IMG/VR virus record: IMGVR_UViG_2563366976_000004
From: a virus
Taxonomy: Duplodnaviria > Heunggongvirae > Uroviricota > Caudoviricetes
Reading direction: 5' to 3' (one strand)
DNA: 6,832 nt
The notes below the pieces were generated by a model. That model had not been told where the DNA came from and searched no databases. It saw nothing but the letters and a program-made list of their open reading frames with translations. The position numbers and the translations under genes are program-made. Shown one piece after another: positions 1 through 6,832 of this stretch (position 1 is the stretch's first letter; every line of letters starts with the position of its first letter).

Positions 1-984
1 ACGCAGATTGATAACGGTCAGCTTGCGCCTGACCTGGCTGAAATCAGGACGTCCATTACGGATGTCAGCAATGAAATCACGCAGACCGTCAATAAAAAAC
101 TGGAAAATCAGAGTGCGGCAATCCAGCAGATACAGAAGGTTCAGGTTGATACAAATAATAATCTGAACAGCATGTGGGCTGTGAAGCTGCAGCAGATGCA
201 GGACGGACGCCTTTATATTGCGGGTATCGGTGCCGGTATTGAGAATACGCCAGCAGGAATGCAGAGTCAGGTGCTGCTGGCGGCAGACAGGATTGCGATG
301 ATTAATCCTGCGAATGGCAACACAAAGCCGATGTTTGTTGGTCAGGGCGATCAGATATTCATGAACGACGTGTTCCTGAAACGCCTGACGGCTCCCACCA
401 TTACCAGCGGCGGTAATCCTCCGGCATTTTCCCTGACACCGGACGGAAAACTGACCGCTAAAAATGCAGATATCAGTGGCAGTGTGAATGCGAACGCCGG
501 GACGCTCAACAATGTCACAATTAATGAGAACTGTCAGATTAAGGGGAAACTGTCAGCCAACCAGATTGAAGGCGATATAGTCAAAACAGTGGGTAAGGCT
601 TTTCCGCGGGACTCCCGGGCACCGGAGCGGTGGCCATCAGGGACCATTACCGTCAGGATTTATGACGATCAGCCTTTTGACAGGCAAATTGTTATTCCGG
701 CGGTGGCATTCAGCGGCGCTAAACATGAGCGGGAGAATAACGATATTTATTCGTCATGCCGCCTGATAGTACGGAAAAACGGTGCTGAAATTTATAACCG
801 TACCGCGCTGGATAATACGCTGATTTACAGTGGTGTTATTGATATGCCTGCTGGTCGCGGCCACATGACGCTGGAGTTTTCTGTATCAGCATGGTGGGTA
901 AATGGCTGGTATCCCACAGCAAGTATCAGCGATTTGCTGGTTGTTGTGATGAAGAAAGCCACTGCAGGCATCACGATTAGCTGA
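1..984 (+). CDS. J: Tail-tip host-specificity protein J, C-terminal portion (5' end lies outside the window)
   Basis: Frame 1 is open from base 1 through the listed ORF 172-984, stop TGA at 982-984. The translation ([62 protein letters not shown]...) matches my recollection of the C-terminal region of lambda J. Position directly upstream of lom agrees with lambda gene order. Confidence 0.88.
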
Positions 985-1003
985 ATTTTATAACCCCAAT
1001 ACG

Positions 1004-1030
1004 GGCGCCAGAAATGGCGCCTTTTTTATT
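1004..1030 (+). terminator. Rho-independent terminator after J
   Basis: GGCGCC (1004-1009), loop AGAAAT, GGCGCC (1016-1021), immediately followed by TTTTTTATT (1022-1030), about 20 nt after the J stop codon. Confidence 0.6.
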
Positions 1031-1051
1031 GCAGAAAAGCGAGAGGTAATT

Positions 1052-1651
1052 ATGCGTAAAGTTTGTGCAGCCATTTTGTCCGCAGCCATCTGTCTGTCCG
1101 TATCCGGTGCGCCTGCATGGGCGTCTGAACATCAGTCCACACTGAGCGCGGGGTATCTTCATGCCCGTACGAACGCTCCCGGCAGCGATAATCTGAACGG
1201 GATTAACGTGAAATACCGTTATGAGTTTACGGACGCGCTGGGGCTGATTACGTCCTTCAGTTATGCCAATGCTGAGGATGAGCAAAAAACGCACTACAGC
1301 GATACCCGCTGGCATGAAGATTCCGTGCGTAACCGCTGGTTCAGCGTGATGGCGGGGCCGTCTGTACGCGTGAATGAATGGTTCAGCGCGTATGCGATGG
1401 TGGGTGTGGCTTACAGCCGTGTGTCGACTTTCTCCGGGGATTATCTCCGCGTAACTGACAACAAGGGGAAAACGCACGATGTGCTGACCGGAAGTGATGA
1501 CGGTCGCCACAGCAACACGTCTCTGGCGTGGGGGGCTGGCGTGCAGTTTAACCCGACCGAATCCGTAACCATTGACCTTGCTTATGAAGGTTCCGGTAGT
1601 GGCGACTGGCGAACGGATGCATTTATTGTTGGTATCGGATACCGTTTCTGA
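1052..1651 (+). CDS. lom: Lom outer-membrane protein (Ail/Lom/OmpX-family beta-barrel)
   Basis: 199-aa ORF with a signal-peptide-like N-terminus (MRKVCAAILSAAICLSVSGAPAWA) and a C-terminal aromatic residue (GYRF) typical of outer-membrane beta-barrels. Sequence closely matches lambda Lom as I recall it. RBS GAGAGG lies 6 nt upstream of the ATG, and the gene sits between J and stf as in lambda. Confidence 0.9.
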   Translation: MRKVCAAILSAAICLSVSGAPAWASEHQSTLSAGYLHARTNAPGSDNLNGINVKYRYEFTDALGLITSFSYANAEDEQKTHYSDTRWHEDSVRNRWFSVMAGPSVRVNEWFSAYAMVGVAYSRVSTFSGDYLRVTDNKGKTHDVLTGSDDGRHSNTSLAWGAGVQFNPTESVTIDLAYEGSGSGDWRTDAFIVGIGYRF

Positions 1652-1755
1652 CAACAGACGCCGATTTATCTTCTGTAAATATTGTTATGATACGCAGGTT
1701 CATCCACCTTATGGGGTGAACTGCGTTTGAGGAAACGTAAAGTTACACTGTCCTG

Positions 1756-1788
1756 AAGCCCGTGGCGTCACTGCTGCGGGCTTTTTTT
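1756..1788 (+). terminator. Putative terminator between lom and stf
   Basis: AAGCCCG (1756-1762) pairs with CGGGCTT (1777-1783) around a 14-nt loop, followed by a T7 run (1782-1788). The large loop makes this less canonical. Confidence 0.45.
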
Positions 1789-1802
1789 ATTGGTGGAAAA
1801 GT

Positions 1803-4800
1803 ATGACAGTAAAAATTTCTGGCGTGCTTAAAGATGGCACAGGAAAACCAGTACAGAACTGCACCATTGTGCTGAAGGCCAGACGAACCAGCAGCACGGT
1901 GGTGGTGAACACGGTGGCCTCTGAAAATCCGGATGAAGCCGGACGTTACAGCATGGATGTTGAGCATGGCCAGTACAGCGTCACCCTGCTGGTTGAAGGT
2001 TTTCCGCCTTCACATGCCGGGACCATTACCGTCTATGAAGGTTCCAGACCAGGTACGCTGAATGATTTTCTCGGTGCCATGACGGAGGATGATGTCCGAC
2101 CGGAGGCACTGCGCCGCTTTGAGCAGATGGTGGAAGAGGTGTCACGTAACGCCTCCGCGGTTGCACAGAATACGGCAGCCGCGAAAAAATCAGCCAGCGA
2201 TGCCAGTGCATCAGCCAGCGAGGCGGCAACTCATGCAACCGATGCTGCAGCCTCAGCACGTGCCGCCAGCACGTCAGCCGGACAGGCCGCGTCGTCGGCT
2301 CAGTCAGCGTCTTCCAGCGCAGGAACGGCATCGACAAAGGCCCGTGAAGCAGCAAAAAGTGCTGCTGCTGCAGAGTCATCAAAAAGCGCGGCAGCTACCA
2401 GCGCCAGTGCCGCGAAAACGTCAGAAACGAATGCCGCAGCATCACAAAAATCGGCAGCCACTTCTGCATCCACAGCGACCACGAAGGCGTCAGAAGCTGC
2501 CACCTCGGCACGGGGTGCGGCGGCCTCAAAAGAGGCAGCGAAATCTTCAGAAACGAATGCATCATCAAGTGCCAGTAGTGCAGCTTCCTCGGCAACGGCG
2601 GCAGGAAATTCCGCGAAGGCGGCAAAAACGTCCGAGACGAACGCTAAGTCTTCTGAAACAGCAGCGGGACAGAGCGCCTCAGCTGCGGCAGGTTCAAAAA
2701 CAGCGGCTGCATTATCTGCCAGTGCCGCGTCAACAAGTGCCGGGCAGGCCTCAGCCAGTGCCACCGCCGCCGGAAAATCGGCAGAAAGCGCCGCATCATC
2801 CGCTTCAACAGCCACAACGAAGGCTGGCAAAGCCACTGAGCAAGCCACTGCAGCAGCGAGGTCTGCTTCTGCAGCAAAAACCTCTGAAACAAATGCAAAG
2901 ACTTCAGCAGACAATGCTGCTTCCTCTAAGGCGGCAGCCGCATCGTCAGCCAGTTCAGCGGCGTCATCGGCATCATCTGCGTCTGCTTCAAAAGATGAGG
3001 CGACCAGACAAGCGTCAGCAGCGAAAGGTAGTGCCACGACAGCAACAACGAAAGCATCAGAGGCGGCAGGCAGTGCGACGGCTGCATCTCAGAGCAAAGT
3101 TGCTGCTGAATCCGCGGCAACGCGCGCCGAGACAGCAGCAAAACGGGCAGAGGATATTGCATCCGCCGTGGCGCTGGAGGATGCGAGCACGACGAAAAAG
3201 GGGATAGTACAGCTCAGCAGTGCAACAAACAGCACCAGTGAAAAGCTGGCGGCAACGCCAAAGGCAGTTAAAACTGTTAAAGATAGTTCAGTTCAAAAAA
3301 CTGGCGACACAATGGGAGGGCAGTTAAAAATCAGCACGATAAATGCTCTTCGAATATTCAACCAAGCCTTTGGCCTTATTTTTAGGCGTTCCGAAGATCA
3401 TCTTCATCTTATTCCGACTAATGAAGGGGAGGGGGAAAATGGAGACATCGGTTCATTAAGACCATTCTCTATAAACTTAAGATCAGGGTTGGTGTCCATC
3501 GGTAATGGACTAAAAGTTGGTGGTAGTGTTACTGGTAATTTGACCGGAAACGCAGATACTGCGACCAAGATCAAGACAGCACGTAAGATTGGGGGCGTGG
3601 CATTTGATGGATCGGCAGATATCAACTTGCCTGGAGTCAACGCTACCGGTAATCAAAACACTACAGGTAATGCTGCGACCGCCACGAAACTTCAGGCAGC
3701 CAGAACGATTAACGGTGTGTCATTTGATGGTAGTGCAAATATCACATTGACCCCTTCAAATATTGGGGCATTGGCATTAACTGGAGGGACTCTTTCAGGT
3801 GGTTTAACTGCTGCTGGTGAGGTTATTTCAAGGTCAGCAAATGGTCTGCGTATTGCCTATGGCAACTATGGATTCTTTATCCGAAATGATGGATCAAACA
3901 CATATTTTATGTTGACAGATTCGGGTAACAGTCTTGGTACGCACAATAGCTTAAGGCCGTTTATAATTAGTAACCATACTGGCAATGTTACAATTGCAAC
4001 TAAATTAAACGCGAGTGGTGGTATCACTGGATCTTTATCGGGTAATGCAAGCACAGCAACCAAATTGCAAACTGCAAGGACAATTAACGGCGTAAAATTT
4101 GACGGCTCGGCAAATATTGAAGCGTTTCCGCCAGGTGTTCCGCTGCCGTGGCCATCAGATACACCACCTGCAGGTTATGCGATCATGCAGGGGCAGACGT
4201 TTGATAAGGCAGCATATCCGAAACTGGCTATTGCCTATCCTTCAGGTGTTATTCCAGATATGCGCGGCTGGACAATCAAGGGCAAACCCGCCAGTGGCCG
4301 GGCCGTATTGTCTCAGGAACAGGACGGCATAAAATCGCACACCCACAGCGCCAGCGCATCCAGTACGGATTTGGGGACGAAAACCACATCGTCGTTTGAT
4401 TACGGCACTAAATCCACGAATAACACCGGGGCGCATACGCACAGTCTGAGTGGCTCTACGGGGTCTGCCGGTGTTCATACTCATGGTAATGGTATTCGTT
4501 GGCCAGGAGGCGGCGGTTCTGCGTTAGCATTTTATGATGGCGGTGGGTTCACTTATGTCCAGAATTCACAGTATCAAGTAAGCCCGGAGACTTCTTCCTA
4601 TAGATCGTATTATCAACGTATTCAGACACAGTCAGCAGGTGCTCATACCCACTCGCTGTCTGGTACTGCAGCAAGTTCTGGCGCACATGCACATACTGTA
4701 GGTATTGGTGCGCATACGCACTCCGTTGCGATTGGTTCACATGGACACACCATCACCGTTAACGCTGCGGGTAACGCGGAAAACACCGTCAAAAACATCG

Positions 4801-4829
4801 CATTTAACTATATTGTGAGGCTTGCATAA
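1803..4829 (+). CDS. stf: Side tail fibre protein, long StfR-like variant (1008 aa)
   Basis: N-terminus [22 protein letters not shown]... and C-terminus ...[18 protein letters not shown] match lambda Stf / E. coli prophage Stf proteins as I recall them. It contains the conserved fibre motif [24 protein letters not shown], repeated GNAxTATKLQxARTINGVxFDGSANI units and C-terminal HxH repeats. SD GGTGGA lies upstream of the ATG; the stop TAA (4827-4829) overlaps the tfa start. Confidence 0.9.
2148..3182 (+). repeat. Ala/Ser/Thr-rich low-complexity repetitive region inside stf (about residues 116-460)
   Basis: About 345 codons dominated by A/S/T/K/E, with recurring degenerate units such as [18 protein letters not shown] and [10 protein letters not shown]. 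The matching GC-rich DNA repeats (e.g. aaaacgtcagaaacgaatgc near 2416, 2541, 2626, 2877) generate long spurious ORFs in the other frames. Confidence 0.8.
3546..4122 (+). repeat. Three copies of a ~28-aa tail-fibre repeat inside stf
   Basis: [28 protein letters not shown] (about 3546-3627), [28 protein letters not shown] (about 3666-3747) and [28 protein letters not shown] (about 4041-4122). Copies 1 and 3 are each preceded by a related ~60-aa unit (...[38 protein letters not shown]... versus ...[40 protein letters not shown]...). Confidence 0.6.
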
Positions 4830-5413
4830 TGGCATTCAGAATGAGTGAACAAGCACGGACCATAAAAATTTATAATCTGCTGGCCGGAACTAATGAATTT
4901 ATTGGTGAAGGTGACGCATATATTCCGCCTCATACAGGTCTGCCAGCAAACAGTACCGATATTGCACCACCAGATATTCCTGCTGGCTTTGTGGCTGTTT
5001 TCAACAGTGATGAGGCATCGTGGCATCTCGTTGAAGACCATCGGGGGAAAACGGTTTATGACGTAGCGTCAGGGGACGAGTTATTTATTTCTGAACTCGG
5101 TCCGTTACCGGAAAATGTTACCTGGTTATCGCCGGAAGGGGAGTTTCAGAAGTGGAACGGCACAGCCTGGGTGAAGGATACGGAAGCAGAAAAACTGTTC
5201 CGGATCCGGGAGGCGGAAGAAACAAAAAACAACCTGATGCAGGTAGCCAGTGAGCATATTGCGCCGCTTCAGGATGCTGCAGATCTGGAAATTGCAACGG
5301 AGGAAGAAACCTCATTGCTGGAAGCCTGGAAAAAGTATCGGGTGTTGCTGAACCGTGTTGATACATCAACTGCACCTGATATTGAGTGGCCTACGAACCC
5401 TGTCAGGGAGTAA
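4829..5413 (+). CDS. tfa: Tail fibre assembly protein Tfa (194 aa)
   Basis: Translation [54 protein letters not shown]... is nearly identical to lambda Tfa as I recall it, with the same 194-aa length. The start overlaps the stf stop in TAATG, suggesting translational coupling. Confidence 0.9.
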
Positions 5414-5462
5414 TCATTGGGATTATGCCGCAGCACGTCTTAAGCAAGAACGTGCTGCGGTT
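5248..5462 (+). repeat. Direct repeat copy A (tfa 3' end plus downstream hairpin)
   Basis: Aligns by eye with 6297-6512 at high identity (scattered substitutions plus one replaced 13-14-nt patch). The stretch cgtgttgatacatcaactgcacctgatattgagtggcct is identical in both copies. Confidence 0.85.
5428..5460. other. Perfect 11-bp-stem hairpin in the convergent tfa / methyltransferase intergenic region
   Basis: CCGCAGCACGT (5428-5438), 11-nt loop, ACGTGCTGCGG (5450-5460). A T6 run follows on the + strand only after about 10 nt (5471-5476), so it is not a canonical intrinsic terminator in either direction. Confidence 0.45.
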
Positions 5463-5467
5463 GGATG

Positions 5468-6136
5468 CTATTTTTTCCCTGAAGCGGAAAACATTACTAC
5501 AGTACCTTGAACCTTGGTTTTAACATTCTCGAAATGCTCTGAGAGTATATGTGTTAAGCCTTCTTCGGAATCTTTTGTGTTTGAAAAGATGCCTTTCTGA
5601 TTGTAAATGCGCATCAGTTTTTGACCGAAGCTATTGTGCACAACTCCATCGCCAAGAATTGTGGCTCCGTATAGAGTTCCATCGTCAGTTAAGGCCTGCG
5701 CCGCATTGCGTATTACACAGCTTTTTGTAGATATATTTCCAGGCAGGCAGTGAAGAAGGTAAAACATGGAAATGGAATCAAATTGACCATGTAACGCCGC
5801 GGGATAAGGTTCAAAAACATCATGGCTAATTTTATGTTTAATTTTTGATTCCCCAGCCCTTGTAGATGCCGCGTTCAGGCTAGCTTCGTTCAAATCCATT
5901 AAAGATATCAGACTACTCTCAGGTACGTGAGTAAGGTAAAACCCAGTTCCAACACCAATATCCAGATGGTTGTTACCTACATGTTCCAGAAAGTGTGGAA
6001 GAAGGTGTTCCTTTGTAGGACATCCCCATGCAAGCCGATTTGATACTCCCAAAACCCACCAGTCATAAAGCTTTAGGGTAAGTGGTGTGTAAATTTTAGC
6101 CCCATCATCTGTGTTTTTTTTCATTGATTTCACCAT
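5468..6136 (-). CDS. Class I (Rossmann-fold) SAM-dependent methyltransferase, substrate unknown; true start may be the ATG at 6124
   Basis: 222-aa ORF with motif I HLDIGVGTGF (encoded about 5939-5968), an acidic residue at the expected beta-2 position (LMDLN), a motif II/III-like stretch (HDVFEPYP...GQFDSISMFYLLHCLPG...ALTDDGTLY) and an N-terminal YDWW...RLAWG pattern common in small-molecule methyltransferases. No DPPY/NPPY or cytosine-C5 motifs, and no signal peptide or transmembrane segment. GGTGA lies 5 nt upstream of the internal ATG at 6122-6124, while the first ATG lacks an SD. Confidence 0.75.
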   Translation of the reverse strand: MVKSMKKNTDDGAKIYTPLTLKLYDWWVLGVSNRLAWGCPTKEHLLPHFLEHVGNNHLDIGVGTGFYLTHVPESSLISLMDLNEASLNAASTRAGESKIKHKISHDVFEPYPAALHGQFDSISMFYLLHCLPGNISTKSCVIRNAAQALTDDGTLYGATILGDGVVHNSFGQKLMRIYNQKGIFSNTKDSEEGLTHILSEHFENVKTKVQGTVVMFSASGKK

Positions 6137-6165
6137 GTTATAGTTTTATTTGTGAATTAAATCAA
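6137..6165 (-). promoter_or_regulatory. Putative sigma70 promoter for the methyltransferase (TTGATT-N17-TATAAC on the - strand)
   Basis: On the minus strand, TTGATT (complement of 6160-6165), a 17-nt spacer, then TATAAC (complement of 6137-6142) abutting the first ATG. This would place the transcription start inside the first codons and favour initiation at the second ATG (6124), which carries the GGTGA SD. Confidence 0.3.
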
Positions 6166-6192
6166 TTATGGCGATGAATTACAAGGGGTTAA

Positions 6193-6462
6193 ATGCTGCC
6201 GCAGCATAGCGATATTGAAATAGCCTGGTATGCTTCGATACAGCAGGAGCCGAATGGCTGGAAGACCGTCACCACACAGTTCCACATCCAGGAATTCAGT
6301 GAGTATATTGCGCCACTGCAGGATGCTGTAGATCTGGAAATCGCAACGGAGGAAGAAAGATCGTTGCTGGAGGCATGGAATAAATATCGGGTATTGTTGA
6401 ATCGTGTTGATACATCAACTGCACCTGATATTGAGTGGCCTGCAAATCCTGTCAGGGAGTAA
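6193..6462 (+). pseudogene. Truncated tfa-like ORF (89 aa): unrelated 35-aa N-terminus fused to the Tfa C-terminal ~54 aa
   Basis: The C-terminal part [52 protein letters not shown] parallels the Tfa C-terminus ([52 protein letters not shown]). DNA homology with tfa begins near 6297. An AAGGGG SD lies 4 nt upstream of the ATG, so expression is possible. Confidence 0.55.
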
Positions 6463-6512
6463 TCATTGGGATTATGCCGCAGATACGTCGTATGCAGGAA
6501 CGTGCTGCGGTT
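6297..6512 (+). repeat. Direct repeat copy B (tfa 3' end plus downstream hairpin region)
   Basis: Second copy of 5248-5462, in the same orientation. The 13-nt central patch of the hairpin (CACGTCTTAAGCA) is replaced by 14 nt (ATACGTCGTATGCA), which weakens the stem. Confidence 0.85.
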
Positions 6513-6620
6513 AGTTTGTGAGCTTTCGATAGTGGTTGTTATTTTTGCCCTTATTTGTTCCGGAGGCCATGGTTCAATGGTCCGTCTGCCCCCTGTGGTG
6601 ATGTCAGCAAAATCAGCCAC

Positions 6621-6832
6621 TGAACCGCCCCGGGAATCCTGGAGACTAAACTTCCTGAGAAAGAGGTAAACAGGATGACTAAAAATACTCGTTTTTCCCC
6701 CGAAGTCCGTCAACGGGCAGTCCGTATGGTTCTGGAAAGTCAGAGCGAATATGACTCACAATGGGCGACAATTTGTTCCATTGCTCCAAAGATTGGCTGT
6801 ACGCCGGAGACTCTGCGTGTCTGGGTTCGCCA
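6621..6832 (+). mobile_element. IS3-family insertion sequence, IS629/IS1203-like, left end (continues past the window)
   Basis: The sequence from 6621 (TGAACCGCCCCGGGAATCCTGGAGACTAAACTTCCTGAGAAAGAGGTAAACAGGATGACTAAAAATAC) matches my recollection of the IS629 left inverted repeat and orfA leader. IS3-family ends typically begin with TGA. Confidence 0.85.
6675..6832 (+). CDS. IS3-family transposase OrfA, N-terminal part (3' end outside the window)
   Basis: ATG at 6675 preceded by the SD GAGG. Translation [52 protein letters not shown] is the helix-turn-helix OrfA N-terminus of IS629-like elements as recalled. Confidence 0.85.

Follow-up and report, generated by a model that had tools for sequence, protein, structure and literature searches.

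The side tail fibre gene stf in the window (the whole 6,832-nt stretch of phage DNA analysed here; IMG/VR record IMGVR_UViG_2563366976_000004, Caudoviricetes) has a middle part of low G+C content. This raises the questions of whether an internal domain of the fibre has been exchanged, where the edges of the exchange lie, which source may have supplied the DNA, and what the exchange would mean for the fibre. A sequence-only reading had proposed such an exchange for positions 3270 to 4110, with a bearing on host range.

Organization of the stf locus

The window contains a lambdoid prophage locus in which stf lies between lom and tfa (Table 1). Stf is of the lambda type, with the prophage tail fibre N-terminal domain PF08400 (phage_tail_N; aa 1-134, 234 bits versus a cut-off of 26.6), the J-lom-stf-tfa gene order, and a collar together with His-containing repeats. 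Scanning of the full-length protein against Pfam also detected Gp34_trimer at aa 620-722, Collar (PF07484) at aa 778-825 and Phage_fiber (PF03335) at aa 873-886, and PF03406 matched the left boundary of the segment (aa 462-495; 66.2 bits versus a cut-off of 22). The distal region consisting of the collar, the GAHTH repeats and the tip works with Tfa. The same gene order is found with the lambda/Rac/Qin-type Stf proteins, including StfR of the Escherichia coli K-12 prophage Rac and Ur-lambda Stf, which have PF08400, the Ala/Ser-rich rod, the Phage_fiber_2 box, the PWPSD collar, the GAHTH repeats and Tfa in common with the present system. NCBIfam gave no match for Stf or the methyltransferase, and there was no tRNA gene in the window. 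A second tfa fragment, found downstream in a scan of 4800-6832, is a direct and not an inverted repeat.

Table 1. Coordinates of the genes and of the parts of stf in the window
Feature	Position	Strand	Basis
J, C-terminus	172-984		ORF list, Pfam
lom	1052-1651		ORF list, Pfam
stf, side tail fibre gene, 1008 aa	1803-4829	+	ORF list; Pfam domains
N-terminal tail-attachment domain (aa 1-134) and Ala/Ser-rich rod (aa ~135-461)	1803-3185	+	Backbone
Left recombination box, Phage_fiber_2 motif (26 protein letters, not shown)	3186-3272	+	PF03406
Knob 1 (aa 491-580): short lead-in, then diverged gp34-P4-like beta-prism unit	3273-3542	+	Similarity to knob 2
R1 (3543-3626), linker of 12 protein letters, not shown (3627-3662), R2 (3663-3746)	3543-3746	+	
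Knob 2 (aa 649-745), gp34-P4-type beta-prism unit	3747-4037	+	PF21446
R3 (4038-4121) and collar lead-in AFPPGVPL, right junction zone	4038-4145	+	Homology resumption
Distal part: collar domain, His-rich GAHTH repeats, tip	4146-4829	+	Pfam Collar, Phage_fiber
tfa, tail fibre assembly chaperone	4829-5413	+	Pfam Caudo_TAP, E = 1.9e-44

Conserved flanks and different middles among stf alleles

The present gene was compared with eight lambdoid stf alleles (Rac StfR, Turner, PhiR26_1, PhiR29_1, SPF_0923, 204576, SF-468 and AR_0086), all of which showed 87-97% nucleotide identity to it up to 3271/3272, and the same range of identity held for the backbone (1803-3185) with all lambdoid stf alleles examined. 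Homology ended directly after ATPKAVK, exactly where the start of the module had been placed. In the alleles measured, 801-1260 nt of unrelated DNA followed between the shared flanks. Seven of the eight alleles aligned again from 4127-4146, while AR_0086 differed through to the 3′ end. The point at which homology resumed was 4122 for lambda, 4127 for SF-468, 4146 for most alleles and 4053 for P2-like gpH. The PWPSD collar motif had thus been correctly named as the right edge, though not its position, as lambdoid homology resumes 12-36 nt beyond 4110.

Downstream of the segment, positions 4146-4829 were 94.6% and 92.9% identical to phages 204576 and SF-468, respectively, both of which have different middles. 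Lambda stf could be aligned with the present stf only up to 3271 and then from 4122, the blastn matches in the distal part covering 4122-4478 and 4692-4829. The flanks of stfR were 88.8% identical to those of the present stf, whereas its middle, of 1260 nt compared to 873 nt here (aa 491-781), shares just one distantly related gp34-like unit with the present Stf (48% amino acid identity). The allele with the present middle was found in 423 of 5426 complete E. coli genomes at 99-100% nucleotide identity. Stf-like matches occurred in 5178 E. coli genomes, only 423 of which had this middle, and other span classes numbered in the thousands; one and the same module is thus not present in all Stf homologues. 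With lambda-type flanks kept and unrelated middles, the alignments support the expectation of an internal domain exchange in stf, with conserved fibre motifs on either side of the exchanged segment (3273-4145).

Base composition and synonymous codon usage

The G+C content of 3270-4110 was 42.9%, compared to 57.6% in the upstream part of stf (1803-3269) and 51.3% in the downstream part (4111-4829). Two sampled lines, previously counted by hand at 42-43%, measured 43.3% (3301-3360) and 41.7% (3901-3960), and the segment as a whole is below both flanks, as had been anticipated; the composition, also followed in sliding windows, is not uniform. However, the upstream contrast is partly inflated by the Ala/Ser-rich coil, in which GCN and TCN/AGC codons lead to a GC2 of 0.80, and thus to a high overall GC of the rod, while GC3 is only 0.44. 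This exaggeration of the contrast would suit a gene inherited vertically without any transfer, in which the GC dip is a by-product of the amino acids of an Asn/Ile/Thr/Gly-rich beta structure beside an Ala/Ser-rich rod. When every codon was drawn anew at the synonymous frequencies found in J, lom, tfa and the remaining parts of stf, however, the GC3 of the module (0.340, at an overall GC of 0.434) was far below that expected from its own amino acids (0.501 ± 0.028; z = −5.84), with 0 of 5000 resamples as low, which rules out amino acid composition as the sole cause of the dip. In addition, DNA homology to all other alleles breaks precisely at the edges of the segment, and the block encoding knob 1 shows 100% identity between backbones whose DNA immediately before it differs by 6-25%. 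Vertical inheritance without transfer is thus extremely improbable.

In a scan of stf for two change-points in GC3, the low segment extended over aa 488-792 (3264-4178), coinciding with the homology breakpoints, though the change-point statistic was reached by 5 of 200 permutations and is of modest significance on its own. The dip was strong in both knob 1 (GC 0.404, GC3 0.311) and knob 2 (GC 0.405, GC3 0.289). The middles of other stf alleles were also somewhat below their own flanks (GC 0.45-0.51, GC3 0.39-0.47), so that a 'foreign' composition is a matter of degree.

Knobs and repeats of the segment

Self-comparison bore out the two tandem units of ~95 aa and the extra fibre repeat that had been read from the sequence, and arranged them in the order knob 1, R1, linker, R2, knob 2, R3. 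The 28-aa repeat, of the form TGNAxTATKxxxARxIxGVxFDGSAxI, occurs three times (aa 581-608, 621-648 and 746-773), with 69% protein identity between R1 and R2. Knobs 1 and 2 were 42% identical over 114 aa (E = 2e-22), and no repeat between the two units was detectable at the DNA level; on these grounds, a recent intragenic tandem duplication of the units was rejected. The 28-aa repeat had no Pfam match of its own, though in the full-protein scan the Gp34_trimer match (aa 620-722, profile positions 17-116) covered R2 with its N-terminal part. Its assignment to Pfam Phage_fiber_2 proved to be wrong, PF03406 being the KKGIVQLS...ATPKAVK box. The array of repeats and linker is tandemly multiplied in two other fibre proteins (P0010 and P0014).

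Knob 2 matched PF21446 (Gp34_trimer) with 92.7 bits when aa 649-781 were scanned alone and with 94.2 bits in the full protein, against a cut-off of 27. Knob 1 scanned alone reached 14.4 bits, below this cut-off, and is thus regarded as a diverged paralogue rather than a Pfam-level member, its kinship being suggested by the 42% identity to knob 2 and a predicted five-stranded sheet (strands at aa 515-566). Among PDB sequences, knob 2 matched residues 268-350 of the Mu fibre protein S (5yvq, E = 1.6e-25; 73.5% identity over 68 aa in tblastn) and residues ~1040-1121 of T4 gp34 (5nxf, 4uxe), its alignment with gp34 extending over about residues 997-1121 in all. The AF2 monomer model, of low-to-moderate confidence (mean pLDDT 65, pTM 0.36), predicted two five-stranded sheets, and its best Foldseek matches were 5yvq and gp34 structures (E = 1e-7 to 1e-5; probability 1.0), with TM scores of only 0.22-0.25; the model is taken as supporting and not as decisive evidence.

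The P3 and P4 domains of gp34 are five-stranded beta-sheet prisms that punctuate a triple beta-helix (Granell et al., 2017; PMC5537660). The present segment resembles the tandem knob-and-helix layout of this C-terminal region (PDB 4UXE, 5NXF, 5NXH; PF21446), at the level of domains only. T4 gp34 is the proximal half-fibre of a myovirus, whereas the present protein is the side fibre of a siphovirus and has neither the N-terminal region nor the P5 domain of gp34. The closest solved or sequenced relatives of knob 2 are Mu S (gp49; PDB 5YVQ), protein S of P1 and P7, and the fibres of the phage-plasmids SSU5, CMS-2020a and RCS47. Over 68 aa, P1 S has the same amino acid identity to knob 2 as Mu S (73.5%), and CMS-2020a reaches 73% over 96 aa. 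These fibres share the 28-aa repeats and an LPGVNxTGNQNTT linker with the present Stf, but have other N-terminal attachment parts and other tips, and their DNA is ~70-72% identical.

Position in the fibre and receptor binding

The segment is flanked by the coiled rod on one side and by the collar and tip on the other, which supports its assignment to the shaft. The former description as a shaft or distal module therefore stands for the shaft and fails for a distal position, the tip (4146-4829) being 93-95% shared across different middles. In the trimeric fibre, the segment would likewise separate the Ala/Ser-rich rod from the collar and receptor-binding tip, and it may act as a structural spacer with elements for trimer registration, judging from the solved trimeric structures of its homologues.

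The segment might instead be a host-range cassette, whose knobs or repeats recognize a receptor on the cell surface, for example a polysaccharide, and whose acquisition changed the strains to which the phage adsorbs. The restriction of the allele to 423 of 5426 E. coli genomes and the presence of extra globular domains at the middle position in other alleles would fit with this. However, homology to the receptor-binding ends of lambda Stf and P2 gpH lies in the collar, the His repeats and the tip, which come with their cognate Tfa, and the 93-95% nucleotide identity of the tip in alleles with other middles points to a swap of the shaft, from which a change of host range, as previously suggested, does not follow. 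The proximal half-fibre of T4 makes no receptor contact, and we know of no binding function described for gp34-type beta-prisms. The P3/P4 domains homologous to the knobs lie in this contact-free half-fibre (PMC5537660). Although fibre mosaicism is classically tied to host range in literature cited in PMC3945230, a receptor-binding role of the segment is thus unlikely. A compositional 'island' in a fibre gene is not by itself a sign of changed receptor specificity.

Independently assorting cassettes and their source

Two other prophage stf genes have the same sequence as the window at 3048-3676 (L012, one mismatch) and at 3228-3685 (L013, no mismatches), tracts of 458-629 nt that stop at the start of R2. 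Both genes contain the knob-1 block (3273 to ~3680) at 100% nucleotide identity and are without knob 2; before the shared tract the identity is 75-94%, and after it the DNA is unrelated. This combination indicates that the block has moved recently and independently of knob 2, and the perfect identity of the shared tracts shows that exchange is ongoing among E. coli prophages. Knob 1 is joined to a Gp53-like_C tip or a Rac-type tip in the proteins P0025 and P0026. As most of the listed protein matches were of 510 aa or less, being fragments or miscalled genes, context was taken from the encoding contigs. The last repeat with the collar (4053-4411) was 91% identical to P2-like gpH. Knob 2 was not found in another backbone at discordant identity, its nearest relatives being 73-78% identical in amino acids.

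The single module that had been envisaged thus falls apart, as does a model with a single donor: the knob-1 block and R3 plus collar differ in both nearest relatives and breakpoints. These results indicate that the segment is a concatenation of at least two to three independently assorting cassettes. A search of phage DNA, a tblastn search against phages and a search of 5.8 billion proteins identified no donor; in the same searches, E. coli alone had the complete two-knob segment (identity of at least 98%), and single sub-blocks alone, at 92% or less, were found outside this species. The nearest relatives, found in Mu S, CMS-2020a and P1/P7/SSU5-like phage-plasmids, were 65-78% identical at the protein level, and among all non-identical relatives of the knobs the closest reached just 65-82%, so that the direction and source of transfer can be judged only indirectly. 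Homologous knobs were low in GC3 (0.32-0.42) in every backbone checked, suggesting that the composition is the signature of a domain family and does not trace a donor. Of the origin in a lower-GC phage, the low G+C content was thus upheld and the donor was not; a lower-GC donor is plausible.

Routes of exchange

The left box contained exact matches of 35-44 nt with most lambdoid alleles compared and of 53 nt with P2-like gpH, and at the right junction the exact matches measured 17 nt for lambdoid alleles and 41-48 nt for the P2-like gene. In R2 the exact matches were short (14-23 nt), and the crossover there may have been homeologous or have passed through a closer, unsampled intermediate. The L012 and L013 tracts have different left ends (3048 versus 3228), a pattern that homologous exchange would produce and a fixed site would not.

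Considering the results of this study, we propose the following scenario, which we hold to be highly probable as a whole. The region 3273-4145 would encode a shaft segment of composite make-up that a lambda-type side tail fibre has acquired laterally. Its two beta-prism knobs would be of the type seen in distal T4 gp34 and in Mu/P1 protein S, each followed by a conserved 28-aa repeat, with one extra repeat and a linker between the knobs. Entry probably occurred by homologous or homeologous recombination in short DNA stretches encoding motifs conserved across otherwise unrelated fibre genes, with the Phage_fiber_2 box ending in ATPKAVK as the putative left exchange site, the 28-aa repeats as internal sites and the PWPSD collar box as the right site. 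The cassettes would assort independently, with a very recent transfer of the knob-1 block between stf backbones of different kinds. The low G+C content, which is mainly synonymous and strongest in both knobs, would be characteristic of a domain family in circulation rather than of the lambdoid backbone.

A fibre-associated site-specific invertase of the Cin/Gin/Pin/Min family might have carried out the exchange in place of homologous recombination. Sandmeier (1994) and De Paepe et al. credit associated invertases with stf-type exchanges (PMC3945230), and such enzymes have been proposed to account for ancient exchanges between fibre genes. L012 and L013 have a resolvase/invertase gene downstream of tfa, and homologous knobs lie within invertible segments of P1, P7 and Mu. 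The present stf, unlike the Mu/P1/P7 S-type genes, is not inside an invertible segment. The ORF list and Pfam scans gave no invertase gene in the window, and no inverted repeats were found downstream of stf (4800-6832). The breakpoints keep the reading frame and fall within conserved coding motifs, and the differing left ends of the two identity tracts are typical of homologous exchange. Invertase-mediated exchange is thus very unlikely.

Relation to known tail fibre mosaicism

Mosaicism of tail fibre genes by exchange at conserved motifs was reportedly described by Haggard-Ljungquist et al. in 1992, by Sandmeier et al. in 1992 and by Sandmeier in 1994. Short motifs common to the fibres of lambda, P2, P1, Mu and T4 flank variable segments in these known cases, and the breakpoints in the present stf fall in such motifs. 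Horizontal exchange of fibre segments among the same five phages is documented in references 71-74 of PMC3945230, and the RBPseg atlas (2025; PMC12143355) classed pseudo-domains found in distal gp34 as mobile. The present locus does not differ in principle and is a clear but ordinary case of tail fibre mosaicism, known since 1992-94. It adds nothing new to the concept, being a specific and very recent example from a lambdoid prophage.

A broader reading is that the 28-aa repeats and the Phage_fiber_2 box are kept at the DNA level as 'plug sockets', making the knob plus repeat an in-frame mobile cassette for any enterobacterial phage fibre. If so, the cassette could be inserted, multiplied or swapped, and the knobs, with their persistently low synonymous GC, would belong to a distinct gene pool in continual circulation that AT-rich virulent (T4-like) phages keep supplying, implying ongoing gene flow from virulent to temperate phages. 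De Paepe et al. did not detect gene flow in this direction for recent mosaics. We consider the 'plug socket' reading unlikely. The locus nevertheless provides a base-level map of where in-frame exchange is tolerated, namely 3272/3273 after ATPKAVK, ~3676-3685 at the start of a 28-aa repeat, and 4122-4146 before PWPSD. These are junctions of the kind needed for chimeric Stf fibres in engineered phages and packaged delivery vectors.

Layout of the locus and of the segment

The window is the tail-fibre end of a lambdoid prophage; its genes, the four Pfam matches in Stf and the parts of the low-GC middle of stf (the segment, aa 491–781, 3273–4145) are listed in the table. The segment comprises two tandem beta-prism-like units, knob 1 and knob 2, and the 28-aa repeats R1–R3. 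Nucleotides 1–6622 (97%) match many Escherichia coli chromosomes, VR50 and BEN2908 among them, at 99.6–100% identity; the segment is present at 100% in ATCC 25922, and 423 of 5426 complete genomes carry the full stf allele. The E. coli survey also returned many span classes with common stf flanks. In most E. coli genomes the match stops at 6622 and in one record, NZ_CM129861.1, it runs to 6832, suggesting that a variable junction or prophage end may lie near 6622.

Features of the tail-fibre locus and of the low-GC segment of stf
Feature	Nucleotides	Residues of Stf	Remark
J C-terminus	172–984		
lom	1052–1651		
stf	1803–4829		1008 aa
tfa	4829–5413		
SAM methyltransferase	5468–6136		reverse strand
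tfa 3′ remnant	6193–6462		89 aa
PF08400		1–134	Pfam match
Gp34_trimer		620–722	Pfam match
Collar		778–825	Pfam match
Phage_fiber		873–886	Pfam match
Knob 1		491–580	
Repeat R1		581–608	28 aa
Linker		609–620	12 aa
Repeat R2		621–648	
Knob 2		649–745	
Repeat R3		746–773	
Lead-in to collar		774–781	AFPPGVPL

Base composition

The sequence-only reading had described 3270–4110 as a lower-GC stretch, and this was borne out: G+C is 42.9% there (43.3% in line 3301–3360, 41.7% in line 3901–3960) compared with 57.6% in the upstream and 51.3% in the downstream part of stf. Part of the upstream contrast is artefactual, because the Ala/Ser-rich rod has a GC2 of 0.80 and a GC3 of only 0.44, and GC3 was therefore tested conditional on the protein sequence. 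Resampling the codons of aa 491–781 according to synonymous usage in J, lom, tfa and the remainder of stf gave an expected GC3 of 0.501 ± 0.028, against an observed 0.340 (z = −5.84; 0 of 5000 resamples as low), which excludes pure amino-acid bias as the cause of the dip and shows that composition is not uniform. Deviation in the other stf segments is far smaller, and within the window only the methyltransferase gene is comparable (z = −4.8). An unsupervised scan of GC3 along stf with two change points picked aa 488–792 (3264–4178), with a statistic reached by 5 of 200 permutations.

Within the segment, G+C is lowest in the two knobs (GC 0.40; GC3 0.31 in knob 1 and 0.29 in knob 2) and intermediate in the repeats (GC 0.43–0.51). 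Homologous knobs in Mu S, P1 S, CMS-2020a, Rac StfR and Turner Stf are also low (GC 0.42–0.45, GC3 0.32–0.42) within loci of 0.47–0.53 GC, and the low-GC signature is thus a property of a circulating knob domain family. The alternative middles of other stf alleles lie below their own flanks less strongly (GC 0.45–0.51, GC3 0.39–0.47). Since T4-type genomes have about 35% G+C and the knob family is abundant in T4-type phages, an origin of the knobs in AT-rich phages, as had been supposed, is plausible, though phage and protein-database searches found no donor closer than about 65–82% protein identity.

Breakpoints and mode of recombination

The stf gene was compared by blastn with eight lambdoid alleles, from phages Turner, PhiR26_1, PhiR29_1, SPF_0923 and 204576, Rac (stfR, K-12) and the SF-468 and AR_0086 prophages. 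In every one of them the alignment (87–97% identity) begins at the start codon and breaks off exactly at 3271/3272, at the end of the ATPKAVK codons and precisely where the left boundary had been placed. Seven of the eight re-align from 4127–4146, at PWPSD, the AR_0086 stf differing right through to its 3′ end, and the lambda alignment resumes at 4122. Between the junctions, the five phage alleles measured have 801–1260 nt of unrelated DNA encoding different domains; the module is not universal among Stf homologues. In the P2-like gpH gene (P2_4A7b), homology covers the left box (3194–3272, 90%) and then 4053–4411 (91%). The proposed right boundary at 4110 was therefore only approximate, lying 12–36 nt short of the lambdoid junctions and beyond that of the P2-like partner.

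At the left box, exact matches to most of the lambdoid alleles are 35–44 nt long and the match to the P2-like gene is 53 nt long; at the right box the corresponding lengths are 17 nt and 41–48 nt. PF03406 (Phage_fiber_2) falls on a 26-aa box at the left junction (66 bits) instead of on the 28-aa repeat, which was rejected as a Phage_fiber_2 unit. The evidence favours exchange by homologous or homeologous recombination at these conserved coding boxes. Experiments have shown that lambda undergoes relaxed homologous recombination across stf-tfa with the prophages Rac and Qin, in a study that also summarises classical work on the exchange of fibre genes between lambda, P2, P1, Mu and T4 (De Paepe et al. 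2014, PMC3945230). For this allele there is no support for invertase-driven exchange: no invertase gene appeared among the ORFs of the window or in the Pfam scans, and no inverted repeats were found downstream of stf.

The stf genes of SF-468 (aa ~462–620) and of two other stf-bearing loci, L002 and L004, carry two to four tandem Phage_fiber_2 boxes with a spacer (45 aa), multiplying the left recombination anchor, which is single-copy in the window allele. The first 1469 nt of the AR_0086 stf are 97.4% identical to the window, followed by a wholly different distal half and an inverted second tfa; just upstream, ISEc12 (IS21 family; 237–2539 of that locus) interrupts lom.

Composite origin and recent transfer of knob 1

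The full two-knob arrangement was found only in E. coli, at ≥98% identity, in a protein-database search that also returned proteins carrying single sub-blocks in other combinations. Two of these, with knob 1, come from lambdoid prophages (L012 and L013) with the order J-lom-stf-tfa as in the window. Upstream stf is 74–94% identical in L012 and 76–97% in L013 (90-nt bins), and is followed by tracts shared with the window at 3048–3676 (one mismatch) and 3228–3685 (no mismatches), respectively. In both, the R2-coding stretch then diverges mainly at third codon positions before the sequences become unrelated; the L012 gene goes on into a distal part of Rac type, and that of L013 into a Gp53-like_C tip, accompanied by a different Tfa. 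Such perfect identity inside approximately 12% divergence is direct evidence that the knob-1 block alone was transferred very recently. On the left, the crossovers lie in the rod or in the Phage_fiber_2 box, and on the right they lie where R2 begins. The left ends do not coincide (3048 vs 3228), which agrees with homologous recombination and not with a fixed site. For the R3-plus-collar stretch the nearest relative is yet another gene, P2-like gpH, and the segment is composite.

In L013, tfa is closely followed by a gene for a SopE-like guanine-nucleotide-exchange effector (5371–6093, minus strand; PF05364/PF07487), and beyond that lies a resolvase/invertase gene.

Structure and role of the segment

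The two tandem units and extra fibre repeat noted earlier were recovered: knob 1 + R1 and knob 2 + R3 share 42% identity over 114 aa (E = 2e-22), and R1 and R2 share 69%. No DNA-level repeat was found within the segment, so it is not a recent internal duplication. Gp34_trimer scores 92.7 bits on knob 2 alone and only 14.4 on knob 1 (cut-off 27). Searches of PDB sequences matched Mu fibre protein S (5yvq residues 268–350, E = 1.6e-25; 73.5% identity to knob 2 over 68 aa by tblastn) and T4 gp34 (5nxf, 4uxe, 5nxh) around residues 997–1121, a triple beta-helix with interspersed beta-prism domains P3 and P4 of three five-stranded sheets each (Granell et al. 2017, PMC5537660). An AF2 monomer model of aa 485–790 contains two five-stranded sheets (aa 515–566 and 681–731) at moderate confidence only (pLDDT 65, pTM 0.36), and its best Foldseek PDB matches were 5yvq and gp34 structures (E = 1e-7 to 1e-5), with the low TM expected of an isolated chain of an intertwined trimer.

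The segment had been taken for a shaft or distal module. The distal part (4146–4829), consisting of the collar, GAHTH repeats and tip and partnered by Tfa, is common to alleles with different middles (94.6% in 204576, 92.9% in SF-468); the swapped segment is thus a shaft element, not the receptor-binding end, and a host-range effect of the swap is not supported. Considering the homology to gp34 and Mu S, its role is most likely structural, and may lie in spacing, rigidity, trimer registration or folding nuclei.

Each ingredient, namely Stf architecture, the Phage_fiber_2 box (its sharing by P2 gpH and Stf included), mobile prisms and motif mosaicism, has already been described. Mosaic fibre evolution at conserved motifs was reportedly treated by Haggard-Ljungquist in 1992 and Sandmeier in 1992 and 1994. 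Gp34-type prisms are mobile among fibres (RBPseg atlas, PMC12143355). The present locus adds a well-resolved case in which junctions are placed to the base and very recent movement of a cassette is proved; its main use is in showing which junctions are permissive when Stf chimeras are engineered.

Methyltransferase gene and spurious ORFs

A direct repeat of approximately 225 nt (5237–5462 and 6286–6512, 89% identity), comprising the tfa 3′ end and approximately 30 nt downstream, brackets a low-GC (0.41; GC3 0.36) reverse-strand class I SAM-dependent methyltransferase gene, for which NCBIfam gave no match; the second copy of the repeat is the tfa remnant. Judged from this arrangement, the gene looks like moron-type cargo between the full tfa and a leftover tfa end. 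Spurious ORFs lie in or antisense to the stf rod at 2089–3207 (plus strand, frame 2; 372 aa) and 2300–3037 (minus strand; 245 aa). Gene calling in public assemblies has favoured the antisense ORF, cutting stf to its last 419–454 aa, which explains many ‘fragment’ Stf entries in protein databases; the stf genes of L012 and L013 (proteins P0025 and P0026) were likewise shortened by an antisense ORF in the Ala-rich rod.
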